The notes under the pieces were generated by a model. The model ran no database searches. It saw nothing but the letters and a program-made list of their open reading frames with translations, and was not told the DNA's origin. The position numbers and the translations under genes were made by a program. From the NCBI GenBank assembly GCA_964445025.1, contig CAYUJM010000003.1:5475-69474 (forward strand): a DNA stretch of 64,000 bases. Direction: 5' to 3'. Shown piece after piece: positions 30,896 through 58,017 of the stretch; position 1 is the first letter of the stretch; the number at the start of each line of letters is the position of its first letter. This DNA is from an uncultured Terracidiphilus sp. (GTDB taxonomy: Bacteria; Acidobacteriota; Terriglobia; Terriglobales; Acidobacteriaceae).

Positions 30896-33800
30896 ATGTC
30901 CGGCTTTTCGAAAATTCTCCTGATCGCTGCGCTCATGGCGCCGGTGTCCCGCGTCCCGGCGCAGACCATGACTGCTCCCGACATTACCAAGCAACCCACG
31001 CTTTACGTGGTACCCTATGCCCACCTCGACACACAGTGGCGCTGGGAGTTTCCCCAGGTGATCAGCGAGTATCTCCTCAAGACCATGCGGGTGAACTTCT
31101 ACTACATGGATAAATACCCGCACTATGTCTTCAACTGGACGGGCTCAAATCGCTATCGGCTGATGAAGGAGTACTATCCGGCCGACTATGCGCGCCTCAA
31201 GGAGTACGTGGCCAAAGGCAACTGGTATCCCGCCGGATCCTCGGTGGAAGAGGGCGACGTGAATCTGCCCAGCGCGGAGTCGATCATTCGCCAGGTCCTC
31301 TATGGCAACACCTATTACCGCAAGGAGTTCGGCAAGGCGAGCGCGGAATACATGCTGCCGGACTGCTTTGGCTTTCCTGCATCGCTGCCGACCATTCTTG
31401 CGCATGCCGGCGTGAAAGGCTTTTCCACGCAGAAGCTGAACTCCGTATGGCAGCCTGCGCCGCTGATCGGCGGACCCGACTCCCCGGAGAAGACGCCCGA
31501 AGGCATTCCGTTCAATGTGGGGGTATGGGAGGGACCGGACGGAGAGACGATTCTCGCGGCGCTGAATCCGGGCGGCTATGGGAGCCGCATTCATTCCGAC
31601 CTGAGCAAGACGCCTCTGCCCGTGCCAGCTCCCGCGATGGGGACGAGTCCTCGCAGAATGGCCCCGCGGGAGACGGACTGGCCGAGCCGCATCGATATCG
31701 ATGGCAATGCAACCGGGGTCTACGCCGACTATCACTACGTCGGTACCGGTGACATTGGCGGCGCCGTGGATGAGGAATCGGTAAGGCTGTTGGAAGCCAC
31801 GGTGACTCAAGGGCAGGCTGTGATTCCCGCGCCCGGGTTCAACGGGGGCAATCTTGCAGGTCCCGCGCCTCAGGGAACGCCCGTCCGCATGGGCGACGGG
31901 CCCGTGACCGTGATCTCTTCGGCCGCCGATCAGATGTTCCTCGACATCAAGCCCGAAATGTATGCGCGTATGCCGCGCTACAAGGGCGATCTGGAATTGA
32001 TCAATCACTCGGCAGGCTCGCTCACCTCGCAGGCGTACCACAAGCGCTGGAACCGCAAGAATGAAATCCTTGCCGATGCCGCCGAAAAGGCTTCCGTCGC
32101 AGCCATGTGGATGGGTGGCCGCTCGTACCCGCAGCAGCGCCTCAACGATGCCTGGACGCTGGTCATGGGCGGGCAGTTCCACGATACGGGCGCGGGCACG
32201 GCGACACCCCGTTCCTATGAATTTGCGCAGAACGACGATGTCATTGCGCTCAATCAATTCGCCGACGTTCTGACCGATGCAACGCAGTCGGTGGCATCCT
32301 CGCTGGACACGCAGACGAGTGGTATCCCGATTGTGGTGTACAACTCGTTGAACATCGCGCGCGAAGATGTGGTGGAAGCCGCCGTACACTTTCCCGGCGA
32401 AGCTCCCAAGGCGGTTAGCGTGTTCGGACCCGGTGGGCGCGAAGTTCCTTCGCAGTGGGAGAATGGGAAAGTTCTGTTTCTCGCCAAGGTGCCGTCGGTC
32501 GGATACGCCGTTTACGACATTCGCCGCGCAGAAGCGCCCGCCCCGTCGACGGGTCTGAGGGCGAGTGCGACGACGCTGGAGAATCTGCGTTATCGCGTCA
32601 CCATCAGCCCGGATGGCAATGTCGCCAAAATCTTCGACAAGTCGCTGAAAAAGGAACTGCTCGCAGCGCCGATTCGGCTGGCCATCTCAAACGATGCGCC
32701 CAAGCAGTGGCCGGCGTGGAACATGGACTTTGACCAGGAGCAGGCCGCGCCGCGCGCTTATGTGAGCGGCCCGGCGAAGATTCGCGTGGTGGAGAACGGT
32801 CCGGTCCGGGTTGCCGTTCAGGTCTCCCGCGAGACCGAAGGGTCGAAATTTGTGCAGACGGTCCGGCTCTCGGCAGGCGATGCCGGCAATCGCGTCGAGT
32901 TTGGCGAGTCCGTCGACTGGCGCTCGCTTTCGGCAAATCTCAAGGCGGTGTTTTCTCTGTCCGCCGCCAACAAACTTGCCACCTATAACTGGGAGATTGG
33001 AACCATCCAGCGGCCCGACGCCAACGAACGCCAGTTCGAAGTGGCCTCGCACCACTGGATCGATCAGACCGATGAGTCCGGCTCCTATGGCGCAACCATC
33101 CTGACCGATGTGAAGAATGGCTCCGACAAGCGCGACGACAATACCATCCGCCTCACGCTTCTGCGCACGCCGGGAGACGCTTCGCAGATGAAGGGCGGGT
33201 ACACCGATCAACTCAACCAGGATTGGGGCCATCACGAGATTCTGTTCGGGCTCGCCGGCCACGCGGGCGACTGGCGCGAGGGTAAGACGGACTGGCAGGC
33301 CTACCGCTTGAGCACGCCGCTTATCGCCTTTGAGACGGAAAAGCACGCCGGCTCGCTGGGGCGCAGCTTCAGCCTTCTGAATATTGACAACCCGCATGTC
33401 CGCGTTCTGGCGCTCAAGAAAGCCGAAACAAGCGATGAGGTGGTTGTGCGCCTCGTGGAGATGAACGGAAATCCGGCGCCCCAGGTGCATGTGAAGTTTG
33501 CCGGGCCCATTGTCGATGCGCGCGAAGTGAACGGGCAGGAACTCCCCGTCGGCCCGGCATCGATTGTGGATGGTGCGCTCGAAACGTCGTTCAATGGTTA
33601 TCAGCCGCGCACCTTTGCCCTGCACCTCGGTGCGGCTCCTGTGCAATTGACCGATGTTGCATCGCAGCCGGTTGAACTCAAGTACGATCTTGCCGCAGCC
33701 AGCGAGGACGATACCAAGTCGACGGGCGGATTCGACCAGCAGGGTGACGCCCTGCCCGCCGAGATGCTTCCCACCGAACTCAAGGTCAATGGAGTCGGGT

Positions 33801-34471
33801 TCCATCTTGCGCCCGGCGGCGCCAACAAGCCCGACGCGGTTGTGGCGAAGGGTCAGGTCATCGATCTGCCCGAGGGCGACTTCAACAAGGTATATGTGCT
33901 TGCCGCATCCGGTCAGGGCGACCAGCAGGCTGTCTTCCGCGTCGGCGAGCATCCTGTGAAGCTCACCATTGAAGACTGGGGCGGCTTCATTGGGCAGTGG
34001 GACACGCGTCTCTGGAAGCCGAGGCCGGACTCTGTGACCGAGGGCGGAGGCTCCTACAGTCGCGAGGCCGCGCACCAGGTTCCGCTGCGCAAGGATTGGG
34101 CTGTCTCGGCCAACCACGCTACATGGGACTTGACCAACACCGGCTCGCCGGACTGGGCGCCGAACTACCCGGCAGACTATCTCGGCTTGCGCCCGGGTTA
34201 CGTCAAGCCGGCCACCCTGGCGTGGTACGCATCGCATCATCACACGCCGGATGGCCTCAATGAGCCGTATCAGTATAGCTATCTCTTCGTCTATGCAATG
34301 GACCTGCCCTCTCACGCGAAGACGCTGACGCTGCCTTCAAACGACAAGGTTCGGATTCTGGCCGTCTCCGTGGCCAAAGATGAGCCAGGCGTGAGCGCTG
34401 CACAACCGCTGTACGATACTCTGGGCAGGACCGAACCCGGCGCCAGTGAGGAAGCGGCTGCCGCGCACTGA
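30896..34471 (+). CDS. glycoside hydrolase family 38 (alpha-mannosidase-like), secreted, with a C-terminal extension
   Basis: GGAGG lies upstream of the ATG at 30896, and there is a signal peptide MSGFSKILLIAALMAPVSRVPAQ. GH38 N-domain blocks YVVPYAHLDTQWRW, WYPAGSSVEEGDVNLPSAESIIRQ, YMLPDCFGF. 1191 aa. Confidence 0.85.
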   Translation: MSGFSKILLIAALMAPVSRVPAQTMTAPDITKQPTLYVVPYAHLDTQWRWEFPQVISEYLLKTMRVNFYYMDKYPHYVFNWTGSNRYRLMKEYYPADYARLKEYVAKGNWYPAGSSVEEGDVNLPSAESIIRQVLYGNTYYRKEFGKASAEYMLPDCFGFPASLPTILAHAGVKGFSTQKLNSVWQPAPLIGGPDSPEKTPEGIPFNVGVWEGPDGETILAALNPGGYGSRIHSDLSKTPLPVPAPAMGTSPRRMAPRETDWPSRIDIDGNATGVYADYHYVGTGDIGGAVDEESVRLLEATVTQGQAVIPAPGFNGGNLAGPAPQGTPVRMGDGPVTVISSAADQMFLDIKPEMYARMPRYKGDLELINHSAGSLTSQAYHKRWNRKNEILADAAEKASVAAMWMGGRSYPQQRLNDAWTLVMGGQFHDTGAGTATPRSYEFAQNDDVIALNQFADVLTDATQSVASSLDTQTSGIPIVVYNSLNIAREDVVEAAVHFPGEAPKAVSVFGPGGREVPSQWENGKVLFLAKVPSVGYAVYDIRRAEAPAPSTGLRASATTLENLRYRVTISPDGNVAKIFDKSLKKELLAAPIRLAISNDAPKQWPAWNMDFDQEQAAPRAYVSGPAKIRVVENGPVRVAVQVSRETEGSKFVQTVRLSAGDAGNRVEFGESVDWRSLSANLKAVFSLSAANKLATYNWEIGTIQRPDANERQFEVASHHWIDQTDESGSYGATILTDVKNGSDKRDDNTIRLTLLRTPGDASQMKGGYTDQLNQDWGHHEILFGLAGHAGDWREGKTDWQAYRLSTPLIAFETEKHAGSLGRSFSLLNIDNPHVRVLALKKAETSDEVVVRLVEMNGNPAPQVHVKFAGPIVDAREVNGQELPVGPASIVDGALETSFNGYQPRTFALHLGAAPVQLTDVASQPVELKYDLAAASEDDTKSTGGFDQQGDALPAEMLPTELKVNGVGFHLAPGGANKPDAVVAKGQVIDLPEGDFNKVYVLAASGQGDQQAVFRVGEHPVKLTIEDWGGFIGQWDTRLWKPRPDSVTEGGGSYSREAAHQVPLRKDWAVSANHATWDLTNTGSPDWAPNYPADYLGLRPGYVKPATLAWYASHHHTPDGLNEPYQYSYLFVYAMDLPSHAKTLTLPSNDKVRILAVSVAKDEPGVSAAQPLYDTLGRTEPGASEEAAAAH

Positions 34472-34571: not shown

Positions 34572-37025
34572 GTGCAACTTCCCCGCAAATTCCGCCTGAT
34601 CTTGGTAAGTGTCTTTCTTTTGGGGGCCTTGCTCTGCTCCGCTCCCGAAATGCTCCGCATGCTGTCGTCGGGAAGTGACCGCACAAACACAGCAAGCGTT
34701 TTGGCCGCTGCCATGCCACCCTGGCACGTGCCGGGCATGCATCTGACCGTGCAGAACTCCGCTCGCCCTCAACTCCTTATCGACTATCCCGAGGATGGGT
34801 CCATCTTCCCGCAGGAGATCACGCCGCCCACCTTCATCTGGCGCGATGCAAACGCTTCCGCAACGCAATGGCGCATCGATATCGCCTTTACCGATGGCGC
34901 CGAACCGATACGCGCTCTCTCTCATGGTGAGCCCATCAAGATCGGTGAGATCGATCCGCGCTGTATCTCCAACACCAATCAACTTCCTGCACTGACTCCG
35001 GAACAGGCCGCTGCCCATACTTGGAAGCCGGATGAGGAGATGTGGGCGCTCATCAAGCGGCACTCTCTGGGCCATCGCACAGTGGTGACCATCACCGGTC
35101 TCGATGCTGCGAGTCGCGCGGTATCGAAGAGCCGCGTCTCTTTGTCGACCTCAACGGACCCTGTCAACGGAGAAATCTTCTATCGCGATGTTCCGTTGAT
35201 GCCCGCCGAGGGAAAGAAAGGAATTGTGCAGCCGCTCTCGCCATCCCTTCTCTATCTCATCAACTGGCGGATTCGCGATATTGCCAAGCCGGAGAGCCGG
35301 CTGCTGATGCATGACCTGCATACGTGCGGCAATTGCCACTCCTTCTCAACGGACGGCAAGACGATGGGCATGGATGTGGATGGCCCGGGCAACGACAAGG
35401 GTCTGTACGCCATTGTCCCCGTGCAGCAGCATATGTCCATTCGCAGCCAGGATACGGTTGCATGGAACACCGACATGCGCGTGGGTAAGTCGCGCGTAGG
35501 TTTCATGTCGCAGGTTTCACCGGATGGTAAGTTTGTTTTGTCCACCTTCGCCGGACCTGACCAGGATATCCCGAGCACTTACTTCGTAAATAACTTCAAG
35601 GACTATCACTTCCTGCAGGTCTTCTATCCCACCCGCGGAGTTCTTGCCTGGTACAGCCGCGCCACCGGCCGCAGACAGCCGTTGCCCGGCGCCGACGATC
35701 CGCGCTACGTGCAGACCGATGGTGTTTGGAGCCCGGATGGGAAATACGTGGTTTTTGCCCGCGCCGAGTCCAAAAATCCGTCTCCCGAAGGGCAAATCCT
35801 CCCGGTTAAAGCCAACGATCCGAATGAGATTCAGATCCAATATAACTTGTACCGCGTGCCCTTCAACGGTGGATTGGGCGGCAAACCGGAACCTATTCCA
35901 GGCGCGTCAAACAACGGGATGAGCAATAACTTCCCCAAGGTCTCTCCCGATGGCCGCTGGATTGTTTTTGTAAAAAACCGCAATGGGCAGTTAATGCGTC
36001 CCGACAGTGAGTTATATATTGTTCCGTTCAATGGCGGGGCCGCTCGCCGCATGCGCTGCAACACATCATTGATGAATTCATGGCATAGCTTCTCGCCCAA
36101 TGGGCGCTGGCTGGTATTTTCGTCCAAGAGCCGTTCGCCTTACACGCAGATGTATCTTACCCACATCGACGCTAACGGCAATGATAGCCCGCCTATCTAC
36201 ATTGATAACTCAACCGCCGCTAACCGGGCCGTCAATATTCCCGAGTTCGTAAATGTTCCGCCCGATGGCATCGAAAGCATCGATGTGCCGGCGTCTGACT
36301 TTTATCGCATCGTCGATGAGGCAATGGACCTGCAGGGCAAGGGAGATATCTCAGGCGCGTTGGCCAAGTGGCAGAAGAGTCTTGGACTGGATCCCGCGGA
36401 TGCGCGCGCCAATAACGGAATGGGCATTGCCCTGGGTATGTCTGGAAAGCCCGACGATGGCATTCCATACTTCCAGAAGGCCATTCAATCGCAGGCGGAC
36501 TTCTTTGAGGCTTACTACAATTTGGGAATCATCTTCACAAAAGAGGGCCGCGTGAATGAAGCTGCCGAAGCGTGGCAGAATGTTGTTCGCATCCGGCCCG
36601 CTTTTGCGCAGGGGCACGAGGAGCTTGGTTACACGCTTTACTTGCAGGCGAAATACTCCGATGCGCTATCGCAACTCCGCAAAGCTGTGGAAGAGGAGCC
36701 CAATCGGGTTCTCGCGCTCAGGCTGGCAGCGAACCTACTGGCAACAAGTCCAGACTCCTCCATTCGCAATGGCGCCGAGGCCGTTACGTTGGCTGCCAAG
36801 GCGAGGCAGTTGAGCGAGGGGCATGACCCGGCGGTTCTCGACACCCTGTCCGCGGCTTACGCAGAAACCGGGAACTTCAGCCAGGCAACCGAGATCGAGC
36901 AGCAAGCCGTTGCGCTCGCTGTGCAGGAAGGAAACGCCGCACTCGAAGCTAGGCTCAAAGGCCACATGGCGCGCTATGCGTCGAATGAAGCTCTCCGCAT
37001 AGCGCCGAGCCGCACCGCCTTCTAA
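34572..37025 (+). CDS. periplasmic TolB-like beta-propeller (PD40 repeats) + TPR protein with a single CXXCH motif
   Basis: GTG start with GAGGTG upstream and an N-terminal TM/signal segment. CGNCH at codons 252-256 (35325-35339). Repeated SPDGK/SPDGR/SPNGR PD40-like motifs. The C-terminal ~230 aa are TPR repeats. Confidence 0.7.
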   Translation: MQLPRKFRLILVSVFLLGALLCSAPEMLRMLSSGSDRTNTASVLAAAMPPWHVPGMHLTVQNSARPQLLIDYPEDGSIFPQEITPPTFIWRDANASATQWRIDIAFTDGAEPIRALSHGEPIKIGEIDPRCISNTNQLPALTPEQAAAHTWKPDEEMWALIKRHSLGHRTVVTITGLDAASRAVSKSRVSLSTSTDPVNGEIFYRDVPLMPAEGKKGIVQPLSPSLLYLINWRIRDIAKPESRLLMHDLHTCGNCHSFSTDGKTMGMDVDGPGNDKGLYAIVPVQQHMSIRSQDTVAWNTDMRVGKSRVGFMSQVSPDGKFVLSTFAGPDQDIPSTYFVNNFKDYHFLQVFYPTRGVLAWYSRATGRRQPLPGADDPRYVQTDGVWSPDGKYVVFARAESKNPSPEGQILPVKANDPNEIQIQYNLYRVPFNGGLGGKPEPIPGASNNGMSNNFPKVSPDGRWIVFVKNRNGQLMRPDSELYIVPFNGGAARRMRCNTSLMNSWHSFSPNGRWLVFSSKSRSPYTQMYLTHIDANGNDSPPIYIDNSTAANRAVNIPEFVNVPPDGIESIDVPASDFYRIVDEAMDLQGKGDISGALAKWQKSLGLDPADARANNGMGIALGMSGKPDDGIPYFQKAIQSQADFFEAYYNLGIIFTKEGRVNEAAEAWQNVVRIRPAFAQGHEELGYTLYLQAKYSDALSQLRKAVEEEPNRVLALRLAANLLATSPDSSIRNGAEAVTLAAKARQLSEGHDPAVLDTLSAAYAETGNFSQATEIEQQAVALAVQEGNAALEARLKGHMARYASNEALRIAPSRTAF

Positions 37026-37080: not shown

Positions 37081-39267
37081 TTACTGCGGTCCCGACATGG
37101 TCAGGATAAGTAGGGATCCGGTTCCCAGCGTGACGCTGCGATTTGTACTCGTGATCTTTGCGCTGCATCCCGGCCCTCCTTCAGGCTCCAGCTTCACGGC
37201 TGGAATGTTGAGCACAATCCCAGGATGTACAGTGTGTGGTGCGCCACCAGGGTTGAGGTCCAAGTCGTAAGCGTTTATCAGGCCGTTTATGGCGGTATCT
37301 ATCCTCCGCCCTCCTCCCGCTACTTCAGTGGGCAGTTCGTCATGCATTCTCCTGGATTGGTCTGGAGGCCCAAGCAGGCCAATCAGCCGCATCGAGAGTT
37401 CCTTCTTCCCATGTCCTGTGCAGTCGCCATGATCGAACACCAGCGAGAGCTCCGATGAACTGGGATCCTTGGATGATGTGGAAGATACGACGTGGCCGTA
37501 GACAATGGCATCCTGATCCAAGGTGCAGCCGGGATAGACGAGTCCGTCGAGAACCCGCACCCAGATCTCCTTGCCAACTTTCAGATGCGCGGAGTCCAAC
37601 CCACCGGTCAAGCGAGCCTGAATGGTCTGATCGAGTGGATGATCGTTCGTATCGCCTGGCGTGCATGCGGTTTGGTCGGCCAGATTCGGCGGCGCCGAAG
37701 ATGCAGCAGCAATCGCCCTGCCCTTTCCAAACACCGGCGTCACCTGCTCCTGAGTGGTTTCGAACTTCACCAGGCCATCGCGGTAGTCGAGGTGCAGCGT
37801 CAGCGGTTGCAGGACGTCGAGCCCCAGCATGCCCGCAATTTCGAACCCGGCATTTCGATCGATGACCGAAGGATCGAGTTCAAGAATGTGCCCCTGATGG
37901 ATCTGTTGCAGGTTGGCGAGCTGGATGTCGAACACCTCGCGATAAAACTGGACTTTTGTGCCCTGCGCGGTCATTTCGGGGTTGGTGAAGTTCACTGTCA
38001 TTTTTGACAGGGAGTGCGCGGCCTCCGATGTCATGGCGCTGAACCGCATGCCCGTGGCCAGGACGAATAATTTGCGTGACTTGTTGCCGAATGTCAGAGG
38101 CACCAGCAAGTATTGCCGGCGGTGATAGACCTGCGTCCAATCGCCTGCATCCGGGGGGGCTGGGCGATCTCCCGGCAATAGCCCGGCCTGTTCTGGGAGC
38201 GGTGCCAACGTCATCTTGGCCAGTCTGTAGTCCAGCGTAATCATCCATTGGGCGAATACATCGGTGCCAATGAAGCCATCCGCCTTGCCTGCGAACTGCG
38301 TGTCGCTCACTCCCACTATGCAGTTGCGAAACTCGAGCGGGCCAATGCGCACGCTGTCGAGGCGGACCGTTCCCTGCGGGTCGCCCACGCCCAGCTTCAG
38401 CCCGTTTTGGTCGGCGAGTGCTTTGGTAATAAAGAGGCCGGACGCCGCCGAATCCACAATCAGTTTGGCCTTGCCCTGCGGCAATTCGGCCTCCAGCCGG
38501 TAGCCGTCGATGTGCTTCGCGTCGGCAAACGTTGGCTGCAGCGGTATTACGGCCGACGCGACGGAAGGCAGAACCTGGCAAGTCTGCGAATTCTCAGACA
38601 GCAGCGGCATCATGGCGTGCATCGACGCCTCGGCCTTCCTTCGCGTGTCCGCATCGATATTCTTCTCTGTGGCGAGCCCCTGATCGATGCCCTCTATGTC
38701 ATGCGCGGGCGACACGACGTGCTGCCAGGCATTCTGGATATCGGGGTCGGACGGATCGATGTCGTAGGCCTTTTGAATCTCCGCGCGCTCCGAGGCGTAC
38801 ATGGAGTCGATGCGCAGCACGCGGCTGCGAGTCAGATGGGCGCGCGCATAGCATGGGTCGGCAGTCACGGCCGCATCGAGCGTCTGATGAGCAAGCCAGG
38901 GCTCTCCCTCGCGCAGTTCGACTTCAGCCTGCGCTGTAAGCGTCGCCGAGGCGTGCGGATTCGCGGCAAGGGCCGTATTCACCTGGGCGGATGCCTGTGC
39001 GATTTTGCCTTCATGCAGCAGCGTGCGCACCAGCGCCGCGGATGCCTCTGCATCCTGCGGATTTTGCGCCAACGCCTGCTGATATAGTCCTTCCGCGTCC
39101 GCGTAGCGGCCATCGTTGTAAGCAGTGTCCGCAGGTGTGTCGGGATGCCCGGCATTGGCCGGACACGCTGGAGCCTGAGCACAAACAGAAATCGCGGTAC
39201 ACAGAGGAACGACCGCTAACCAACTGATCCACCTGGAGCGCAACGTGGAGCGTAAGGAGAAAGGCAT
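37081..39267 (-). CDS. secreted TPR + retropepsin-like aspartyl protease-domain protein
   Basis: Start at the ATG 39265-39267 with a signal peptide. N-terminal TPR repeats. The central KLIVDSAASGLFITK and GFIGTDVFAQWMITLDY resemble bacterial aspartyl protease (retropepsin-like) domains. The C-terminal ~250 aa are unassigned. Confidence 0.6.
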   Translation of the reverse strand: MPFSLRSTLRSRWISWLAVVPLCTAISVCAQAPACPANAGHPDTPADTAYNDGRYADAEGLYQQALAQNPQDAEASAALVRTLLHEGKIAQASAQVNTALAANPHASATLTAQAEVELREGEPWLAHQTLDAAVTADPCYARAHLTRSRVLRIDSMYASERAEIQKAYDIDPSDPDIQNAWQHVVSPAHDIEGIDQGLATEKNIDADTRRKAEASMHAMMPLLSENSQTCQVLPSVASAVIPLQPTFADAKHIDGYRLEAELPQGKAKLIVDSAASGLFITKALADQNGLKLGVGDPQGTVRLDSVRIGPLEFRNCIVGVSDTQFAGKADGFIGTDVFAQWMITLDYRLAKMTLAPLPEQAGLLPGDRPAPPDAGDWTQVYHRRQYLLVPLTFGNKSRKLFVLATGMRFSAMTSEAAHSLSKMTVNFTNPEMTAQGTKVQFYREVFDIQLANLQQIHQGHILELDPSVIDRNAGFEIAGMLGLDVLQPLTLHLDYRDGLVKFETTQEQVTPVFGKGRAIAAASSAPPNLADQTACTPGDTNDHPLDQTIQARLTGGLDSAHLKVGKEIWVRVLDGLVYPGCTLDQDAIVYGHVVSSTSSKDPSSSELSLVFDHGDCTGHGKKELSMRLIGLLGPPDQSRRMHDELPTEVAGGGRRIDTAINGLINAYDLDLNPGGAPHTVHPGIVLNIPAVKLEPEGGPGCSAKITSTNRSVTLGTGSLLILTMSGPQ

Positions 39268-45478: not shown

Positions 45479-45486
45479 CTCCGATA

Positions 45487-49287: not shown

Positions 49288-49324
49288 GCCGGACTGCCCC
49301 CAAAGCAGTCCGGCTTTTTTCTTT
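49288..49324 (+). terminator. Rho-independent terminator after the TonB-dependent receptor
   Basis: GCCGGACTGC (49288-49297), 7-nt loop, GCAGTCCGGC (49305-49314), followed by TTTTTTCTTT. Confidence 0.85.
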
Positions 49325-49439
49325 GCAGCCGAATCACTCTCGCGCGCCAGAAGACTTGATCGCTGCGCGAACCCCGGAACTGCAATACTTCCGCGATGCA
49401 ACAGCGTTGCGAACCAACTATAATCACAGGTCATGAGGG

Positions 49440-49451
49440 TGGATCGATCCA
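49440..49451. promoter_or_regulatory. 12-bp perfect palindrome related to the operator motif (shortened variant)
   Basis: TGGATCGATCCA lies 15 nt downstream of a TATAAT hexamer (49419-49424) and abuts the ATG at 49451. It lacks the W at positions 4 and 11 of the 14-mer. Confidence 0.35.
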
Positions 49452-50623
49452 TGTCATTGTCTCGCTGTGCGCCGCGATTACTGGCTGTGCTCTTGCTGGC
49501 TCTTGTGGCAACTATCGCTTTTGCCCGGCAGGCGAATGACGAAGTTACGCCCCAGGTGCAGCAGTTGTATGCGGAGGCAAAAGCCGCGCAGCAGCAAGGC
49601 GACAGCGCAGCGGCAATCGCGAAATACCGCGCCATGATCAAGCTTGCGCCGCACCTGGCCGCCGCCTACAACAACCTGGGCATGCTCTACTTCAATGAGC
49701 GTGACTATTCCCATGCCGCGGAGGTGCTCAAGCGCGGATTGGAGATTCAGCCGGATATGCCCACGGCCTCGGCCATGTTAGGCATGAGTTATTTTCAGTT
49801 AGGCATGAACGACAAGGCTGAGCCGCTTCTGCGCGCAGTGCAGCGCGCCAAGCCGGACGACGACCATGTGGAGATGGTCCTGGTGCATATCCTCATCAAC
49901 CTGAGGAAGTATGGAGAGGCGGCATCGTATCTGAACAACTTCCTGGAGCGGAACCCGAAGAATCAGGAAGGATGGTATATGCTCGGCAAAACATATCTGC
50001 AGATGTCCGAGGACGCGCTCAAAAAGATCAATGAAATCGATCCGAATTCCGTGGTTGCGCATGAGATCGCCGGCGAGATCGATGAGAGCATGCACAACTA
50101 CGATGTGGCTCTGGTGGAATACAAGAAGGCCGTCGACATGGCCCCGCACGAGCCTGGAACGCATATGCACATGGCAAATGCGTATTGGCTCACCGGCAAG
50201 TGGGAGTCGGCGCAGGATGAGTTCAAGGCGGAGCTGACCAACGACCCCAACAACTGCACCGCCCGATGGAAGCTGGCCAACGCCATGCTGGAGGCAAACG
50301 ACTCCAGCGAGGACGCGCTCGCGCAGTTGAACCAGTCCATCGAGCGCTGCCCACTTCTGATGCAGGCGCGCGTAGACCGGGCCCGCGCGCTCATCCGGCT
50401 CGGGAAGCAGAGCGATGCCTTGCCCGACCTGCAGTTGGCCGTCAAGGACAGCCCCTCTGAGCCGACCATTCATTTTCTTCTCGCCACTGTCTACAGGTCG
50501 CAGGGCAAGGCCGCCGATGCTCAGCAGGAGATGCGCACGTATAGCGAGTTGCAGCGGGCGGCCAGTGAAGCCGTGGCGGGACAGGCAAATGATGCCAGCG
50601 CAATCAAGAGTGCCGCACACTAG
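49451..50623 (+). CDS. tetratricopeptide repeat protein (secreted)
   Basis: ATG 49451 with AGGGTGG upstream; ATG 49433 is the alternative. Signal peptide MSLSRCAPRLLAVLLLALVATIAFA, followed by multiple TPR units. Confidence 0.75.
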   Translation: MSLSRCAPRLLAVLLLALVATIAFARQANDEVTPQVQQLYAEAKAAQQQGDSAAAIAKYRAMIKLAPHLAAAYNNLGMLYFNERDYSHAAEVLKRGLEIQPDMPTASAMLGMSYFQLGMNDKAEPLLRAVQRAKPDDDHVEMVLVHILINLRKYGEAASYLNNFLERNPKNQEGWYMLGKTYLQMSEDALKKINEIDPNSVVAHEIAGEIDESMHNYDVALVEYKKAVDMAPHEPGTHMHMANAYWLTGKWESAQDEFKAELTNDPNNCTARWKLANAMLEANDSSEDALAQLNQSIERCPLLMQARVDRARALIRLGKQSDALPDLQLAVKDSPSEPTIHFLLATVYRSQGKAADAQQEMRTYSELQRAASEAVAGQANDASAIKSAAH

Positions 50624-50627: not shown

Positions 50628-51575
50628 ATGGCGCTTGTCGGAAAATGCGTGCTCGGAGCGTTCCTGCTCTGCGCTCGTGCGGCCATTTGTCAGCAGCTTC
50701 CGGACTCGCTGGCCGAGCCGCGTGCGCTCATTGCGCAGGGCAAGCTCGCAGCGGCTGAGGCATCTCTCCACGATTTTGTGAAACAGCATCCCGCTTCCGC
50801 GGATGCGCATTTCCTGCTCGGCTATGTCTTGTTTCGTGAACAGAAGGCAGTGGACTCGCTGGCGGAGTTCACCGCCGGCGCCCACGTACGGCGGCCGAAA
50901 GCGGATGAGCTGAAAACCGTGGCGTCAGATTATGTATTGCTGCGCGACTACGCCGACGCCGATAAGTGGTTTACCGAGGTTGTGGTCGAGACTCCTGACG
51001 ATGCGGAAGCCTGGTATCTTCTTGGGCGGACCAAGTACAACGAAAACGGATTCTCCAACGCTGTTTCGAGCTTCGAGCGCGCGCTGGCCTTGCATCCCAA
51101 ATACATTGAAGCCGAAAACAACCTCGGATTGTCATGGAAGGAATTGAATAACCCGGAGAAGGCGAAGGCTGCTTTTCAGACCGCGATTGACTGGCAGGGA
51201 GATGCCCCCGCAGACGCTCAGCCATTCCTGAATCTCGGCACGTTGCTTGCGGATCAGAGCGACTTCGATAAATCGATCCTTTATCTGACGAAGGCCGTCT
51301 CGCTGTCCCCGGAAAATCCCAGGATTCATGAGGAGCTAGGCCAGGTTTACGAGGCTCAAAAGAACCTGCCGCAAGCGCAAGCCGAACTGGAAAAGGCAGT
51401 CGCGCTGGCTCCGGATAGCTCAGCGCTGCACTTCAGGCTGGGGCAGATCTACCGCCATGAGGGCCTTCGCGACCGCGCCCAGCACGAATTCGATCTGTGC
51501 GAAAAGCTGAACAGCACTCACTCCTCAGCCAGCACGCCCAATCCCCCGGCTCTCGGTCCGGCTGTGCCCCACTGA
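50628..51575 (+). CDS. tetratricopeptide repeat protein (secreted)
   Basis: The ATG at 50628 lies 5 nt after the previous stop. Signal peptide MALVGKCVLGAFLLCARAAICQ, followed by TPR units. The track ORF start (50415) overlaps the previous gene. Confidence 0.75.
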   Translation: MALVGKCVLGAFLLCARAAICQQLPDSLAEPRALIAQGKLAAAEASLHDFVKQHPASADAHFLLGYVLFREQKAVDSLAEFTAGAHVRRPKADELKTVASDYVLLRDYADADKWFTEVVVETPDDAEAWYLLGRTKYNENGFSNAVSSFERALALHPKYIEAENNLGLSWKELNNPEKAKAAFQTAIDWQGDAPADAQPFLNLGTLLADQSDFDKSILYLTKAVSLSPENPRIHEELGQVYEAQKNLPQAQAELEKAVALAPDSSALHFRLGQIYRHEGLRDRAQHEFDLCEKLNSTHSSASTPNPPALGPAVPH

Positions 51576-51731: not shown

Positions 51732-51745
51732 TGGTATCGTTTCCA
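51732..51745. promoter_or_regulatory. LacI-type operator candidate (site 4)
   Basis: TGGTATCGTTTCCA. The 17-mer TGTGGTATCGTTTCCAA (51730-51746) is identical to 56804-56820. It overlaps the -35 position of the TATAAT at 51765-51770. Confidence 0.6.
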
Positions 51746-51849: not shown

Positions 51850-54800
51850 ATGAAGAATGTGACAGGTAGCGGAGTTGGAAGGCATGCATTGAGCATCAGC
51901 CTGTTGTCCTTGGCGTTCTGCATGTTTGTGGGATCGTTCGGCCGGGCGCTGGCCCTTGCGCAATCAGCGGAGCAGGCGGCGCAGGTTGTCAAATCGCTTG
52001 ATGGCAAATCCAAGGCGGTGGTTGCCCGCCTGTCCGAGTTGGATCAGCTGCCGGCGGATGAGTGGCGCTTCCACGTGGGAGATCTGGCGCATGGGGAGTC
52101 CACCGAACTGGACGACTCGTCATGGCAGGTGGTGAAGGCCCAGGCACAGGGAGCGCAGGAAGCGGAGTGGTTCCGTCGGTGGATTGAAGTGCCGCAAAGC
52201 CTCCATGGCTACGACTTGACCGGCGCGCGGATTTGGTTCTCCTTCTCTGCCAATGCCAATGGCCCCATGCCGGAGATCATCTACTTCAACGGGCGTCGCG
52301 TGGCTCTGGGCGACGATCTTGAGCCGATCGTCCTCTTCGATAAGGCCAAGCCCGGCGACAAAGTTCTGGTGGCCGTGAAGCTGTTGCACACCGTGGATAA
52401 GAAGACCTTCGACGGCGCAAATCTCAAGATCGACTTTGCCGAGAACCGGCCGAATCCGGAGGACCTGCGGTTGGAAATCCTGTCCGCGTCCTTGCTTGTT
52501 CCCAGTCTCTCGAAGAGTGTCGAGGCCGACACGGCGACTCTGGAGAAGGCAGCGGGCGCGGTGGATTTGGATGCTCTGGATGCAAAGGACCAGGCAAAAT
52601 TCGACGCTTCCCTGAAGCAGGCGCAATCCACGCTCGAGCAGCTCAAGCTGCTGTTGCAGCAGGGGACGCTCCATTTGACGGGCAACTCGCACATCGACGC
52701 GGCTTGGCTCTGGCCCTGGACGGAGACCGTGGACACGGTGAAGCGTACCTTCGGCACCGCGTTGCAACTGATGAACGAGTACCCCGATTACACCTACACC
52801 CAGTCCGCGGCTCAATACAACGCATGGCTCGCTGACAAGTATCCGCAGATGAACGATGAGATCAAGCAGCGCATCAAGGAAGGGCGTTGGGAGATCGTCG
52901 GCGGAATGTGGGTCGAACCCGACTTGAACATGCCCGATGGCGAGGCACAGGTACGTTCGCTCCTGGTGGGCAAGCGCTGGTTCCAGAAAGAATACGGCGT
53001 CGACGTCAGGATCGGGTGGAATCCTGATTCCTTCGGATACACCTGGCAGTTACCGCAGATTTACAAGAAGTCCGGCGTCGACTACTTCGTCACGCAGAAG
53101 ATGACCTGGAATGACACCAATCAGCTTCCCTTCAAGCTCTTCTGGTGGGAGTCGCCGGACGGGAGCAAGGTGCTGACTTACTTCCCGCACGACTACGCGA
53201 ACGACAATCTGAACCCGGTGCGTCTTGCCTACGATCTGTCCCAGGCGCGGGAGAGAGCGCCGGGGACGACCGAGATCATGGACCTCTATGGCATCGGCGA
53301 TCATGGCGGCGGGCCGACGCGTGCAATCCTGGATGAGGGTGTGCACTGGATGCAGCCGGATAAGGTCGTTCCCAAGTCGAATTTCGGAACTGCCCAGACT
53401 TACTTCACCAGCATTGAAACCAAGTTGGCCGCAGACTCGCCGGTGTGGGATTACGACTCCATCGCCAAGGGATACAAGGCTCCCGCAACGCCGGCCGATG
53501 GGCAGGTTGCGATTCCCACCTGGAAAAGCGAGCTCTATTTTGAATATCACCGCGGCGTGATGACCACCCAGGCCAATCACAAGCGCAACATGCGCGACAG
53601 CGAAGAGCAGGCCATCAACGCCGAGAAGCTGGCGTCGCTGGCGTGGCTTGCGGGCAAACCGTATCCCGGCGATGCGCTCACCGAAGCGTGGAAGAAAATC
53701 ACCTTCAACGACTTCCACGATCTGGCCGCGGGCTCGGGCATCGGCATCATCTATAAGGAAGCGCAGAAGGACTTCGACGATGTGCGCTGGGCCACGAACG
53801 AAATCTCCCAGCAGTCGCTGAAGACTGTGTCTGCCGCGATCAATACGCAGGTAGCCGGGGGCGTGCCTGTCCTGGTGCTGAATCCGCTGGCCTGGGAGCG
53901 TTCAGGGCCGGTCACGGTGGATGTGCAGTTACCCACCGCAGCCGCGGGTGGCGTCTCCGTGCTGGACGCGGCCAACCACGTTGTGCCGTCGCAGGTGCTC
54001 AAAAGCGATGCTGCGACCAACAGCTACAAACTCCTGGTCCTGGCCAACAATGTGCCGTCCCTGGGCTACAAGGTGTTGCACGTCGTCTCCGGCGCAAAAA
54101 CGTTTGCCAGCGATCTGAAGGCAGAGGGATTCAAGCTGGAAAACTCCGCGCTGAAGGTCACGGTAGACAACCAGACCGGCTGCATCACCAGCCTTTACGA
54201 CAAAAAGACGAAGTTCGAGACACTCGCTCCGGGCGCCTGCGGCAACCAGTTGCAGACGTTCAAAGACCTGCCCAAGGATTACGATGCGTGGAACATCGAT
54301 CCCGGCACGCTCGATCATTTCACCTCCATCGATAAGGCCGATTCTGTCGAGCTTGTCGAAAAGGGCCCGCTGCGCAGCGCAATTCGTGTCACGCGCACCT
54401 GGCAGAGTTCGAAGTTCGTGCAGGACATCACGCTCGACGCCGGCTCGGATCAGGTGGACGTGGTCAACGACATCGACTGGCATGAAACGCATGTCTTGCT
54501 GAAGGCTGCTTTCCCACTCGCCGCCACCAGCAACAAGGCCACTTACGAGGTCCCATACGGCAGCATTCAGCGGACCACGACGCGCAACAATAGCTGGGAG
54601 CAGGCGCAGTTCGAGGTGCCGGTGCTGCGCTGGGCCGATCTGGGCGATGGGCAGCACGGCTTCAGCCTGATCAATAACTCGAAGTATGGCTACGACGATA
54701 AGGACAACGTGCTTCGTATCTCCCTGCTTCGTTCGCCCACCTGGCCCGATCCGGACGCCGACCGCGGACATCATCACTTCACCTATGCACTCTATCCCCA

Positions 54801-55182
54801 CAGCGGCGATTGGAAGCAGGCGCTGACAGTGCGCCACGGGTACGAATACAACTACCAGTTGCAGGCCACTCAGGTGCAGTCCCATGCCGGGAGCATGCCG
54901 GCAGAGTTCGCGTATGTAACTGTCAAGCCGGAGAACGTTGTACTCACGGCAATGAAGAAAGCCGAGGATTCCAACAGCTTGATCTTCCGCGTGTATGAAT
55001 GGGCAGGGAAATCAGGGGATGTTGAATTCCATGTGCCCAAGGGCGCCACGGGAGCAACCATCACCAATCTGATGGAAAAGCCTGAAGGCACAGCACTCAA
55101 GGTCGCGGACGATACGGTTACGGCTCCGATTCATCCGTATGAAATTCTGACCCTGCGTGTGGACTACACAGCAAATCAATAG
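51850..55182 (+). CDS. glycoside hydrolase family 38 alpha-mannosidase (secreted)
   Basis: ATG 51850 with a signal peptide. Classic GH38 blocks LTGNSHIDAAWLWPW, GRWEIVGGMWVEPDLNMPDGEAQVRS, GWNPDSFGY, FVTQKMTWND. 1110 aa. Confidence 0.92.
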   Translation: MKNVTGSGVGRHALSISLLSLAFCMFVGSFGRALALAQSAEQAAQVVKSLDGKSKAVVARLSELDQLPADEWRFHVGDLAHGESTELDDSSWQVVKAQAQGAQEAEWFRRWIEVPQSLHGYDLTGARIWFSFSANANGPMPEIIYFNGRRVALGDDLEPIVLFDKAKPGDKVLVAVKLLHTVDKKTFDGANLKIDFAENRPNPEDLRLEILSASLLVPSLSKSVEADTATLEKAAGAVDLDALDAKDQAKFDASLKQAQSTLEQLKLLLQQGTLHLTGNSHIDAAWLWPWTETVDTVKRTFGTALQLMNEYPDYTYTQSAAQYNAWLADKYPQMNDEIKQRIKEGRWEIVGGMWVEPDLNMPDGEAQVRSLLVGKRWFQKEYGVDVRIGWNPDSFGYTWQLPQIYKKSGVDYFVTQKMTWNDTNQLPFKLFWWESPDGSKVLTYFPHDYANDNLNPVRLAYDLSQARERAPGTTEIMDLYGIGDHGGGPTRAILDEGVHWMQPDKVVPKSNFGTAQTYFTSIETKLAADSPVWDYDSIAKGYKAPATPADGQVAIPTWKSELYFEYHRGVMTTQANHKRNMRDSEEQAINAEKLASLAWLAGKPYPGDALTEAWKKITFNDFHDLAAGSGIGIIYKEAQKDFDDVRWATNEISQQSLKTVSAAINTQVAGGVPVLVLNPLAWERSGPVTVDVQLPTAAAGGVSVLDAANHVVPSQVLKSDAATNSYKLLVLANNVPSLGYKVLHVVSGAKTFASDLKAEGFKLENSALKVTVDNQTGCITSLYDKKTKFETLAPGACGNQLQTFKDLPKDYDAWNIDPGTLDHFTSIDKADSVELVEKGPLRSAIRVTRTWQSSKFVQDITLDAGSDQVDVVNDIDWHETHVLLKAAFPLAATSNKATYEVPYGSIQRTTTRNNSWEQAQFEVPVLRWADLGDGQHGFSLINNSKYGYDDKDNVLRISLLRSPTWPDPDADRGHHHFTYALYPHSGDWKQALTVRHGYEYNYQLQATQVQSHAGSMPAEFAYVTVKPENVVLTAMKKAEDSNSLIFRVYEWAGKSGDVEFHVPKGATGATITNLMEKPEGTALKVADDTVTAPIHPYEILTLRVDYTANQ

Positions 55183-55262: not shown

Positions 55263-56309
55263 TCAGGCAGTGGCTGGATGGCAGCCGCAGGAATTGCGCA
55301 GGATCAGGCAGGTCTTCAGCTTGAATTGCCGCGCCATCTTGGAAGAAGTCGATGGAGCGGCCTTGCGCTCATCGAATAACTGCTCGAAGAGAATCTCCGC
55401 CGCCCTGCGCCCGATCTCTTCTACCGGCTGCTGGATTACGCTGATGGAGGGCCGAACCGTTGAAGCAAGCTCGAAGTCATCGAAGCCCAGCAAGGCAATG
55501 GTTTGGGGCACCGGGATATTGAACTTCTGCAGCGCCTCGAAGGCGTAAATAGTAGTGCTGTTCTTGAGAGCAAAAATGGCGTCCGGCGGATTCGGTCCGT
55601 CCAGCAGGTTCTTTACGGCGTATTCGGCGGACTTGTAGTCCGTGACTGAGGTGTCGAAGATGGGTGTCAAATGCGCGGATTCGATAGCCTTGCGATATCC
55701 GTTCATTCGCTCGCGAATGGTGTACAGGCTGCTTTCCCCGGTCAGGCACACAATCCGCTTGTAGCCGTGATCGATCAGATGCTGCGTGGCAGTCATCGCG
55801 CCCTTCAGGTTGTCGGCCACCACCGAGGTGATCGACGAGTTGCCCACGGGGCGATCGATCGCCACAACCGGTATGGCGACCCGGTTGAGCAGGTCGCGCA
55901 GGGCGTGACTCTGCGAGTCGGCAGGCACAATGATGAGCCCGTCCACTCGATGGCGGATGAGAACGTTCAAGTTATCCAGCTCATTGCGCGCGTCGTTTGC
56001 CGTCACCGTCACAATCAGCAGCGAATCGTTGGTGCGCGCCACAGCTTGTGCGGCTTCGGCGCAGCTTGAAAAGAACGGATCGGCGATGCTGGGAATTACC
56101 AGCCCAATGGTCTTGGTGCGGTGACCTTTCAGGGTCCGTGCAGCCTGGTTCGGCATGTAACCGAGTGCTTCAATCACCCGCCGCACATGATCCAATGTTT
56201 TGGGGCTCACACGATCGCCGCCGTTGATGACGCGGGAGACTGTAGTGGTGCCAACGCCCGCTTTTCGGGCGACCTGGCTGAGAGTTGGGTGCGTGCTTTG
56301 CTTAGCCAT
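55263..56309 (-). CDS. LacI-family transcriptional regulator
   Basis: Start at the ATG 56307-56309. HTH PTLSQVARKAGVGTTTVSRVINGG, followed by a periplasmic-binding-protein-like effector domain. Confidence 0.92.
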   Translation of the reverse strand: MAKQSTHPTLSQVARKAGVGTTTVSRVINGGDRVSPKTLDHVRRVIEALGYMPNQAARTLKGHRTKTIGLVIPSIADPFFSSCAEAAQAVARTNDSLLIVTVTANDARNELDNLNVLIRHRVDGLIIVPADSQSHALRDLLNRVAIPVVAIDRPVGNSSITSVVADNLKGAMTATQHLIDHGYKRIVCLTGESSLYTIRERMNGYRKAIESAHLTPIFDTSVTDYKSAEYAVKNLLDGPNPPDAIFALKNSTTIYAFEALQKFNIPVPQTIALLGFDDFELASTVRPSISVIQQPVEEIGRRAAEILFEQLFDERKAAPSTSSKMARQFKLKTCLILRNSCGCHPATA

Positions 56310-56805: not shown

Positions 56806-56819
56806 TGGTATCGTTTCCA
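56806..56819. promoter_or_regulatory. LacI-type operator candidate (site 5), upstream of the ROK kinase
   Basis: TGGTATCGTTTCCA, identical to site 4, about 130 nt upstream of the ROK start codon. Confidence 0.6.
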
Positions 56820-56949: not shown

Positions 56950-58017
56950 ATGGCCCCGGAAAACTCGCGGTTACTGACAATTGGAATCGATTTTGGCGGT
57001 ACGAATCTGAGGATTGCCGCATATACGCCGGATATTGGCCTCCTGAATTCCATAGCTCTGCCCACGCGTCTTGAAGCAGGCCCGCACGCCGTCCTTGATG
57101 ATATGTGCGGCGCCATCCTCCAATTGCTCGACCAATACTCTGAAACCTACAGGCTCGCCGGCATCGGAGTTGGATCGCCTGGCCCGCTCGAGTTGCCTGC
57201 CGGGCGCCTTCATCACCCGCCCAATCTTCCCGGATGGGACGGATTCAATCTGCTTGCCGAGATGGAAGCGCGCCTGCGCATGCCGGTTGCGGTGGAAAGC
57301 GACGCCAACGTGGCGGCGCTTGCCGAGTACTCTCTCGGCCTGGGCGCGCAACTTGGCGTCGATTCCCTGTGCATGCTCACCCTGGGCACAGGTGTGGGCA
57401 ACGGAATCATTCTGGATGGGAAGCTATGGCACGGCGCCACCGGCATGGGTGGCGAGGCCGGTCACATGACCATCGATCCCGACGGCCCAGTCTGCGGCTG
57501 CGGCAACAGCGGTTGTCTTGAAGTTTGCGCTTCCGCCACAGCTCTCGTGAGCGCCGCCGAACGCCTGATCGTGGCCGGCAAAGCGCCAGGACTCGCCCGT
57601 CTCAAAGAGAGTCTCGGCACGTTGACCGCTCTCGATCTCGCTCAGGCCGCGCGCCAGGGCGATCCGGATGCTGTGGACATATACGCCCAGACCGGGCGCG
57701 CACTTGGGCTAGCATTGGCCGGCCTGATCAATATTCTCAATCTGCCGCTCTATGTGGTCGGAGGTGGAGTCGCCGAATCGTGGGATCTGCTCGCGCCCTC
57801 TCTCTTTGTTGAACTGGAACGGCGCAGTTATGTCTACGCGCTTACCGCGCCCGGCAGACCTGCCTCAGACGGCGTGCCGGGTGGTGGCACGCAGGTGCTG
57901 CCCGCAAAGCTGGGTCCGGAAGCCGGCCTTCTCGGCGCGTGTATTCTTCCCTTGCATTTATCCAGAACGGCGTGCTCAAGCCCGGCAACCGTCTCCACAC
58001 CGCGTGAACGAAACTGA
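56950..58017 (+). CDS. ROK-family sugar kinase (glucokinase/mannokinase-like)
   Basis: ATP-binding N-terminus IGIDFGGTNLRIA, the ROK signature region, and the zinc motif CGCGNSGCLE. Confidence 0.9.
   Translation: MAPENSRLLTIGIDFGGTNLRIAAYTPDIGLLNSIALPTRLEAGPHAVLDDMCGAILQLLDQYSETYRLAGIGVGSPGPLELPAGRLHHPPNLPGWDGFNLLAEMEARLRMPVAVESDANVAALAEYSLGLGAQLGVDSLCMLTLGTGVGNGIILDGKLWHGATGMGGEAGHMTIDPDGPVCGCGNSGCLEVCASATALVSAAERLIVAGKAPGLARLKESLGTLTALDLAQAARQGDPDAVDIYAQTGRALGLALAGLINILNLPLYVVGGGVAESWDLLAPSLFVELERRSYVYALTAPGRPASDGVPGGGTQVLPAKLGPEAGLLGACILPLHLSRTACSSPATVSTPRERN

Follow-up and report, generated by a model that had tools for sequence, protein, structure and literature searches.

A candidate LacI-regulated α-mannoside utilization locus built on a receptor–TPR–CRTAC1 gene cassette of Acidobacteriota

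What task could join two predicted α-mannosidases, an outer-membrane receptor, a repressor and a sugar kinase to three proteins of the CRTAC1 (ASPIC-UnbV) family, for which we know of no molecular function in any bacterial member? These genes lie together in the genome of an uncultured Terracidiphilus sp. (Acidobacteriota; contig CAYUJM010000003.1 of assembly GCA_964445025.1). A first-pass annotation of this DNA had compared their layout to that of a polysaccharide-utilization locus (PUL) and suggested an α-mannoside uptake system in which the CRTAC1 proteins bind glycans. We analysed the whole 64-kb stretch, hereafter the window, within which coordinates are given, by listing its open reading frames (ORFs) and scanning them against Pfam and NCBIfam. 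On balance, we favour the reading that the genes form a LacI-repressed α-mannoside utilization locus, similar to PULs and to the carbohydrate-utilization loci with TonB-dependent transporters (CUT loci), and that it is built on an acidobacterial cassette of a TonB-dependent receptor (TBDR), tetratricopeptide repeat (TPR) proteins and CRTAC1 proteins, in which the CRTAC1 proteins would capture glycans and the TPR proteins would act as a scaffold.

Predicted operators link the importer, the mannosidases and the kinase

A palindrome scan of intergenic regions first revealed an identical 14-mer before the genes for the α-mannosidase GH38-1 and the TBDR. The 14-bp LacI-type palindrome TGGWAWCGWTWCCA, which has a central CG, occurs four times in the 64 kb with at most one mismatch, against 0.08 occurrences expected, and a fifth copy with two mismatches stands in tandem upstream of the TBDR gene. 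All copies are intergenic, and within the window they lie only upstream of GH38-1, the TBDR, GH38-2 and the ROK/LacI pair. Operator O1 (TGGAATCGATACCA, 30809..30822) is 74 nt upstream of the GH38-1 start. The tandem operators O2a (TGGAATCGATGTCA, two mismatches) and O2b (TGGTATCGATTCCA) start at 45465 and 45487 (45465..45500), immediately 3′ of the −10 box of a sigma-70-like TBDR promoter (TTGACA-17-TAACAT, 45427..45455, forward strand) that is kept in the orthologous loci L001 and L003. Operator O3 (TGGTATCGTTTCCA, 51732..51745) precedes GH38-2, and O4 (again TGGTATCGTTTCCA, 56806..56819) lies in the divergent LacI–ROK intergenic region. A conserved block upstream of the CRTAC1 operon was considered as a further LacI operator and rejected, as it consists of the ribosome-binding site and 5′ region.

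We inspected ten orthologous loci, in which the TBDR is 67–87% identical to that of the window; the closest relatives are Terracidiphilus metagenome-assembled genomes (MAGs). Operators occupy equivalent positions among L001–L004, L007, L008, L035 and L096–L098. The O1 site also precedes the GH38-1 orthologs of L035 and L098, the O2 sites are kept in L001–L004, L007, L008 and L096–L098, O3 in L004, L007, L008 and L096, and O4 in L003, L004, L097 and L098. Where the contig covers the part concerned, the ten loci all keep one to three CRTAC1 copies, the TBDR, two TPR genes (TPR-A and TPR-B) and LacI; eight of the ten have one GH38 or more, and ROK is present in five of eight. Because this core is syntenic in ten related contigs, the locus is not a chance juxtaposition.

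The shared operators place the importer, both α-mannosidases and the kinase in one predicted regulon, and we regard this link, drawn from conserved sequence, as fairly secure. They also bear out the PUL-like, α-mannoside-linked layout that had been proposed, since the conserved operators precede GH38-1, the TBDR, GH38-2 and ROK both here and in the orthologs. The predicted regulator of these sites is encoded on the reverse strand (55263..56309) and combines a PF00356 helix-turn-helix (HTH) domain with a Peripla_BP_1/3/4 effector domain; all of its NCBIfam matches fall under the equivalog cut-offs.

L002 and L003, which lack GH38-2, retain an O3 remnant. These two loci have an identical core and differ 3′ of LacI (16027 onward), where one carries OmpA-family genes and the other ROK and an ADOP permease. 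Together with the degenerate operator at 15940, which is the GH38-2 position elsewhere, this difference indicates recent gene loss or rearrangement. CRTAC1 or GH38 genes are split into several ORFs at L004:5874-9606, L004:16178-19510 and L097:1-3589, probably through assembly frameshift errors and not as pseudogenes.

Enzymes, receptor and predicted secretion

Both GH38 genes are on the forward strand and encode predicted secreted α-mannosidases of the Ams1-like branch: GH38-1 (30896..34471, 1191 aa) and GH38-2 (51850..55182, 1110 aa). The GH38 N, middle and C domains were found in both (in GH38-1 as GH38N, Alpha-mann_mid, GH38C and GH38C2). GH38-2 aligned with Ams1 (PDB 6LZ1) at E 1e-118 over nearly its full length, including the N-terminal β-sandwich, and GH38-1 aligned with an Ams1 fusion chain (7VQO) at E 2e-52; GH38-1 has no N-terminal extension and covers only positions 2–180 of the 270 in the GH38N model. 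In the Ams1 alignments, the pair conserves HIDAAW/HLDTQW (HxD), NPDSFGY/LPDCFGF (nucleophile Asp) and FHD. In GH38 enzymes, the HxD, PD(S/C)FG and FHD motifs provide the metal-binding His and Asp residues and the nucleophile Asp. Mannosylglycerate hydrolase (MngB) was rejected as an identity for either enzyme, given NCBIfam scores of 70–121 bits against a cut-off of 1138 bits and the export signals on both.

The ROK-family kinase (56950..58017, forward strand) is predicted to be cytoplasmic, lacks an HTH domain and carries a CGCGNSGC zinc motif (PF00480, E 2e-58). Its closest solved relatives are the glucokinases 2QM1 and 3VGK, and it scored 186.3 bits against the glucokinase subfamily TIGR00744, under the cut-off of 260.35. 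The earlier proposal that it phosphorylates mannose has to be qualified: the protein is a ROK kinase, but its nearest relatives are glucokinases and it stays below the subfamily cut-off. A role as mannokinase is plausible.

The receptor gene (45594..49229, forward strand) encodes a TBDR-like importer with a CarboxypepD_reg domain (PF13620), a divergent plug and an OMP_b-brl_4 barrel (PF25183, E 1e-156, residues 292–1240). Some orthologs also match PF00593, and NCBI names the orthologs TonB-dependent receptor. A kinship with SusC was rejected at the level of sequence: there was no NCBIfam SusC/RagA match, BLASTP against a Chondrinema SusC gave E 1.3, and only the CarboxypepD_reg-like N-terminal architecture is common to the two. 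A PDB sequence search with the receptor returned no relative.

Start codons were adjusted from Shine–Dalgarno sequences and ortholog N-termini, and secretion was predicted from a hydrophobic N-terminal 12-mer (mean Kyte–Doolittle score) with an AxA-like site after it. The ten secreted-called products all had such a site and scored 1.86–3.05, with the weakest signal in CRTAC1-2, while LacI and ROK scored lower, at 0.89 and 1.28. None of the secreted-called products, TPR-A included, has a canonical lipobox. These scores agree with the earlier statement that every product except LacI and ROK bears a signal peptide, and the Pfam and NCBIfam scans likewise recovered all elements of the gene content, domains and order first described.

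A recurrent cassette with interchangeable hydrolases

A genome scan with the CRTAC1 alignment yielded 80 loci, and neighbourhoods were counted over 84 loci with clustered ORFs from crude ORF calls. The scan loci belong to Terriglobia, Bryobacteraceae, Pyrinomonadaceae/Blastocatellia and Vicinamibacteria, plus Verrucomicrobiia and MAGs labelled Chlamydiota. TPR genes were present in 55 of the 84 loci and CarboxypepD_reg-type TBDR genes in 44; any other family was present in at most 12. Half of the TPR genes (50 of 98) were immediate neighbours of CRTAC1 and 32 of 49 TBDR genes lay no more than two genes away, and the counts of all other genes were flat across offsets 1–5 from CRTAC1 (104, 101, 93, 96 and 91). 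A TPR gene on the same strand directly followed the TBDR gene in 24 of 41 cases. TBDR, TPR and CRTAC1 share one strand in L008 and L019, and a Granulicella tundricola plasmid has TBDR, TPR, CRTAC1 and CRTAC1 in order. A second G. tundricola array holds LacI, alginate lyase, GH88, TBDR, CRTAC1, esterase, GH30 and GH28, and on an Acidisarcina polymorpha plasmid TPR and CRTAC1 lie beside GH27. The other cassette neighbours are mostly sugar genes (GH51, GH13, GH27, GH63-like, MGH1-like, GH38, LacI, ROK and Reg_prop/Y_Y_Y sensor kinases).

Of the co-conservation that the first-pass annotation had expected, the combination of CRTAC1, TBDR and TPR held across Acidobacteriota, whereas GH38 turned out to be a variable accessory, with other glycoside hydrolases (GHs) in distant cassettes. 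Because GH38 is variable and GH51, GH13, GH27 and GH63-like genes occur in those cassettes, the cassette is generic rather than mannose-specific. Joined as it is to other GH families, it would be a substrate-neutral front end, to which GH38 supplies the specificity here. The proposed α-mannoside uptake system therefore fits this locus, by its operators, but not the cassette as such, and the idea becomes broader than first thought, with GH38 as a variable specificity module.

A parallel is found in Bacteroidota. In Hymenobacter volaticus and on three Chondrinema litorale plasmids, ‘VCBS repeat’ proteins of ~1100 aa are encoded 0–2 genes after SusC/SusD. All three such proteins that were scanned contained FG-GAP_3 and UnbV_ASPIC followed by more FG-GAP repeats, their genes are flanked by GH127-like/GH3, GH92, GH95/GH43 or GH78, and a lipoprotein signal is present in three of four Bacteroidota CRTAC1-like proteins. 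The slot just after SusC/SusD is typical of surface glycan-binding proteins (SGBPs). CRTAC1 homologs also occur in sugar clusters of Ruegeria (with a ROK regulator and a xylose ABC transporter) and of a haloarchaeon (with two GH3 genes). On the strength of the directional, phylum-wide synteny and the Bacteroidota parallel, a link of CRTAC1 and TPR proteins to uptake is likely. That TBDR, TPR and CRTAC1 make up a phylum-wide glycan-uptake cassette, the functional counterpart of SusC/SusD/SGBP with a canonical TPR superhelix in place of SusD, and that CRTAC1 proteins act across phyla as glycan-capture proteins or processing enzymes, is a wider possibility that we put forward tentatively.

Several other gene families recur near these cassettes. 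Haem-motif or cytochrome-like TPR proteins are encoded at window positions 34572-37025 and at L013:11932-14244, L097:15007-16575, L098:15026-16669, L085:13865-16558 and L089:4894-6087. Solitary CRTAC1 paralogs are directly followed by a Cytochrome_C554/MtrC-like plus TPR family of ~750–820 aa, two orthologous loci have Paired_CXXCH plus TPR genes inserted between TPR-A and TPR-B, and multihaem cytochrome and cytochrome c genes adjoin the Granulicella cassettes. The recurrence of haem-motif genes could be a sign of redox chemistry at these loci. In the Hymenobacter and Chondrinema PULs, a ‘vanadium-dependent haloperoxidase’ gene follows shortly downstream of the CRTAC1-like VCBS gene (L086:15840-16358 and L091:13438-14817). 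Additionally, a ~420-aa ORF with no Pfam match lies on the opposite strand between TBDR and TPR in six distant cassettes, including L054:6736-7989.

CRTAC1 propellers and TPR solenoids

The CRTAC1 genes run along the forward strand at 39599..41518 (CRTAC1-1), 41542..43440 (CRTAC1-2) and 43437..45209 (CRTAC1-3), the start of the third overlapping the stop of the second (ATGA). Each product has six FG-GAP_3 repeats (E 1e-47 to 1e-53) and a UnbV_ASPIC domain (E 1e-17 to 1e-22), and the alignment shows seven Dx[DN]xDG-like loops. CRTAC1-2 and CRTAC1-3 are 65% and 40% identical to CRTAC1-1, and each paralog has its own ortholog at 85–87% identity; judged by these sequences, the three paralogs are old. 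A hairpin after CRTAC1-3, considered as a terminator, is no more stable than its shuffled counterparts (z −0.5).

The AlphaFold2 (AF2) model of CRTAC1-1 (pLDDT 79, pTM 0.83) predicts a Ca-blade β-propeller. Its top Foldseek match was murine CRTAC1 (9ETN; E 1e-27, TM 0.61/0.72), which phmmer also detected (E 4e-13) at ~18% identity. Next came the Ca-blade GlcNAc lectins PVL, PAL and AAL2 (E ~1e-9), ahead of integrin alpha propellers. Fungal propeller lectins have the same Dx[DN]xDG calcium blade (PMC3123361). The structural likeness to PVL-type lectins and the slot after SusD in Bacteroidota PULs lend indirect support to glycan binding by CRTAC1, and by this analogy we infer that the three proteins may be Ca-dependent glycan-capture proteins, a role that we favour over that of enzyme or envelope factor. 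An N-terminal RPITAGG motif in CRTAC1-1 and CRTAC1-2 was considered as a general docking peptide and rejected: it marks a single subclade, to which 28 of 116 proteins belong, and shows no correlation with adjacency to a TBDR or TPR gene.

Paralogs similar to CRTAC1-2 (60–67% identity) have a second context, around position 10000 in L017, L018, L023, L035 and L061. There, no CarboxypepD_reg receptor is present; the CRTAC1-2-like gene instead has on its flanks a Reg_prop/Y_Y_Y histidine kinase paired with a LuxR response regulator, and a classical Plug/TonB_dep_Rec receptor. The L035 contig also carries, 6.5 kb away, a GH38-1 ortholog that is preceded by a perfect LacI operator.

A search of open-access full text turned up no account that places CRTAC1/UnbV_ASPIC proteins within PULs or next to TonB receptors. 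A CRTAC1-family gene has been placed between hydrazine-synthase-like genes (PMC12758564).

TPR-A (49433..50623, forward strand) is a predicted secreted TPR superhelix of ~10 repeats, and its AF2 model (pLDDT 85) led Foldseek to the OGT-type TPR domain. TPR-B (50628..51575, forward strand) is a second TPR protein with a hydrophobic N terminus, predicted to be secreted and kept in all orthologous loci. We rejected TPR-A as a SusD by homology or fold: it has no Pfam SusD match, hhalign gave a probability of 1.2% and no SusD was among the top 50 Foldseek matches. Only the position of its gene is therefore SusD-like. As no protein of the locus matched SusD in Pfam, the locus indeed lacks a SusD-like partner, as first described. 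Another TPR protein, predicted to be secreted and joined to a retropepsin-like (Asp_protease_2) domain, is encoded on the reverse strand (37081..39267), divergent from the CRTAC1 operon; its Asp_protease_2 match is weak, at 36 bits.

Proposed pathway and alternatives

In the pathway that we propose, LacI would, without inducer, bind the TGGWAWCGWTWCCA palindromes at the TBDR promoter, GH38-1, GH38-2 and ROK/lacI. When α-mannosides are present, the TBDR would import manno-oligosaccharides, mannose-rich glycans or glycopeptides into the periplasm. There, as their signal peptides suggest, the two Sec-exported GH38 exo-α-mannosidases would trim the imports to mannose, which an inner-membrane transporter encoded elsewhere may take up and ROK may then phosphorylate. 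The receptor would work within the conserved cassette, with one or two secreted TPR solenoids encoded right after it and one to three CRTAC1 propellers beside it; the propellers would capture glycans in a Ca-dependent manner, and the solenoids would scaffold them to the receptor.

Several observations weigh against this proposal. At the regulatory level, none of the loci compared has a LacI operator before the CRTAC1 operon or TPR-A, and a strong intrinsic-terminator hairpin (49288..49314, forward strand; −21 kcal/mol, z −6.8), with compensatory changes in orthologs, stands 3′ of the TBDR, between it and TPR-A. The propeller and TPR genes are therefore not predicted to share the repressor of the mannoside genes, and the CRTAC1 triplet, TPR-A and TPR-B, having no operator, are tied to the system by synteny only. 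The neighbourhood statistics were computed without a whole-genome null, and TBDRs, TPR proteins and carbohydrate-active enzymes (CAZymes) abound in acidobacterial genomes. The orthologous locus P0114 carries the cassette and LacI without GH38 or ROK. An inner-membrane sugar transporter, an endo-mannanase and a mannose-6-phosphate isomerase are all absent from the mannoside locus of the window. At the protein level, the likeness of CRTAC1-1 to lectins is at fold level only (TM 0.33/0.49, ~17% identity), integrins and other propellers scoring nearly equally, and TPR-A resembles a generic protein-binding solenoid. The PF07715 Plug match of the receptor is marginal (E 0.033; 15.1 bits, below the 23.9-bit cut-off), although it falls where expected, between CarboxypepD_reg and the barrel. 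Finally, ROK is nearest to glucokinases.

With the rest of the pathway kept as proposed, the CRTAC1 proteins might instead be enzymes, whether Ca-dependent lyases, hydrolases or redox-linked ones, and carry out a first processing of the glycan or glycoconjugate, extracellular or periplasmic, ahead of or following TBDR import. Ca-blade propellers do include a rhamnogalacturonan lyase besides lectins (PMC3123361), and the sugar-acting aldos-2-ulose dehydratase 4A7Z is among the Foldseek matches of CRTAC1-1. The conservation of three divergent paralogs, the recurrence of haem-motif and oxidoreductase genes next to cassettes and the presence of homologs in sugar-catabolic clusters even of an archaeon and an alphaproteobacterium are also consistent with catalysis. 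However, in CRTAC1 we found neither a catalytic motif nor a CAZy family match, and its best structural matches beyond CRTAC1 itself are lectins and integrins. The family also accompanies unrelated enzyme sets (GH92, GH95/GH43, GH78, GH127-like/GH3 and GH38), which fits an adaptable binder of the SusD/SGBP kind better than one fixed chemistry. We therefore consider an enzymatic role unlikely.

The absence of LacI operators from the CRTAC1 and TPR-A promoters of every ortholog could also mean that the CRTAC1 triplet, TPR-A, TPR-B and the TPR-aspartyl protease form a constitutive envelope module for the assembly, anchoring or surface organization of large barrels, leaving the TBDR, the GH38s, LacI and ROK as the sugar system. 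Such a module would suit the strong terminator that ends the TBDR gene, the independence of the cassette from substrate and a conserved TATAAT-like box that belongs to TPR-A itself. This ACTATAATC box (49415-49432) ends ~10 nt before the TPR-A start, as it does in each of the five orthologs compared, and could serve as a −10 element, in which case the leader would be very short. The module would also suit the OGT-like solenoid of TPR-A and several of the NCBIfam matches of TPR-A, all below cut-off, to TPR proteins that are annotated as envelope-assembly factors, such as BamD, LapB and PilW. Several lines of comparison speak against it. Genes for CRTAC1-like proteins come after SusC/SusD in Bacteroidota, a phylum in which the biogenesis of SusC requires no factor of this kind, and the lipoprotein signal on three of four of these proteins is a feature of known glycan-binding proteins. 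Organisms that lack such barrels, the archaeon among them, also have CRTAC1 homologs in sugar clusters, and TBDR, TPR and CRTAC1 lie in this order on one strand in L008 and L019. An envelope module apart from the mannoside pathway thus seems to us distinctly improbable.

Least probable, to the point that we give it little weight, is a glycoprotein or glycopeptide substrate (a fungal mannoprotein or N-glycoprotein) that the protease cuts, the TPR proteins bind by its peptide, the TBDR imports and the GH38s demannosylate: the retropepsin-like protease is conserved in eight of nine orthologous loci and divergent from the CRTAC1 operon, TPR-A matches the OGT-type TPR superhelix, a fold that binds extended peptides, and a neprosin-like peptidase adjoins L098, but the protease gene has no LacI operator and only the weak domain match given above, the locus encodes no peptide transporter or N-glycanase, and distant cassettes are without the protease.

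Accessory and flanking genes

Between GH38-1 and the protease gene, an accessory gene (34572..37025, forward strand) encodes a PD40/TolB-like β-propeller plus TPR protein with a single CGNCH at residue 252; among the loci compared, it was found only in the window and L096. No MFS, ABC or SSS sugar transporter is encoded between 28.8 and 61.8 kb, where the sole permease is an ADOP-family duplicated MacB/FtsX permease (58132-60618; TIGR03434, 779 bits). Its gene comes directly after ROK here, in L001 and in L003, has no adjacent partner ATPase gene and no LacI operator, and is probably unrelated to the sugar locus. The upstream flank (12163-30594) is mostly housekeeping (a HAD–UbiA fusion, Rho, a ComM/Mg-chelatase-like ATPase and L-serine dehydratase) and also holds an S41 peptidase with a PDZ domain and, directly upstream of GH38-1, a SurA-like peptidyl-prolyl isomerase. 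An Rfam scan of the whole window matched only a tRNA (13832-13904), so there is no riboswitch in the long LacI–ROK spacer.

Significance and comparison with known systems

The Acidobacteriota, which rank with the most abundant bacteria of soil, encode numerous CAZymes and numerous TonB receptors of the CarboxypepD_reg type. To our knowledge, they have no SusD, and no rule such as ‘find the SusC/SusD pair’ delimits their loci. If our reading is right, a conserved cassette with interchangeable glycosidases would give such a rule for Acidobacteriota PULs and allow PUL-style substrate prediction. It would also provide the first function for bacterial CRTAC1/ASPIC-UnbV proteins, a family whose members range from bacterial proteins to one of human cartilage. 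Cultured strains also have the cassette (Granulicella tundricola and Acidisarcina polymorpha), and the predicted LacI operator offers a concrete handle on an α-mannoside regulon. Loci of the PUL or CUT kind are already known; the candidate TBDR–TPR–CRTAC1 uptake cassette is undescribed in Acidobacteriota.

In common with Bacteroidota PULs, the locus has a TonB-dependent importer of the outer membrane that carries a carboxypeptidase-regulatory-like domain at its N terminus, a gene for an all-helical repeat protein right after it (here TPR-A, in the SusD position), further secreted proteins as accessories, and glycoside hydrolases and a sugar regulator close by (here two GH38s and LacI). Among the enzymes of the yeast-mannan PULs of Bacteroides thetaiotaomicron is a GH38. 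By contrast, the receptor is not of the SusC family, TPR-A is not SusD and the accessory proteins carry no lipoprotein signal.

CUT loci of Xanthomonas and other Proteobacteria combine a TBDR, CAZymes, a LacI-type regulator and an inner-membrane transporter. The window shares with them the TBDR, the secreted glycosidases, the LacI-family repressor and palindromic operators before the TBDR and enzyme genes, but it has no inner-membrane transporter and its receptor is of the acidobacterial CarboxypepD_reg/OMP_b-brl_4 class. We know of no counterpart to the conserved TPR and CRTAC1 partners in described CUT loci.

The mannosidases have the HxD, PD(S/C)FG and FHD motifs in common with Ams1/MAN2C1-type GH38 enzymes (PDB 6LZ1, 7DD9 and 7UFR–7UFU). 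The yeast and mammalian enzymes of this type are vacuolar or cytosolic, whereas those of the window bear signal peptides.

The fungal integrin-like lectins PVL, PAL and AAL2 (PDB 2BWR, 4UP4, 5MB4 and 4TQJ), which bind terminal GlcNAc or sialic acid, are also Ca-blade FG-GAP-type propellers, but they lack UnbV_ASPIC and are 15–18% identical to CRTAC1-1. The full architecture of an FG-GAP Ca-blade propeller followed by UnbV_ASPIC is common to the window proteins, vertebrate CRTAC1 and the UnbV/SgcE4 proteins of enediyne clusters, and homologs were found on the Streptomyces globisporus C-1027 plasmid. Vertebrate CRTAC1 is cartilage acidic protein 1, whose EGF-like tail is missing from the bacterial proteins. 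Unlike these relatives, which belong to the extracellular matrix or to polyketide biosynthesis, the CRTAC1 proteins of the window stand beside a TBDR and glycoside hydrolases.

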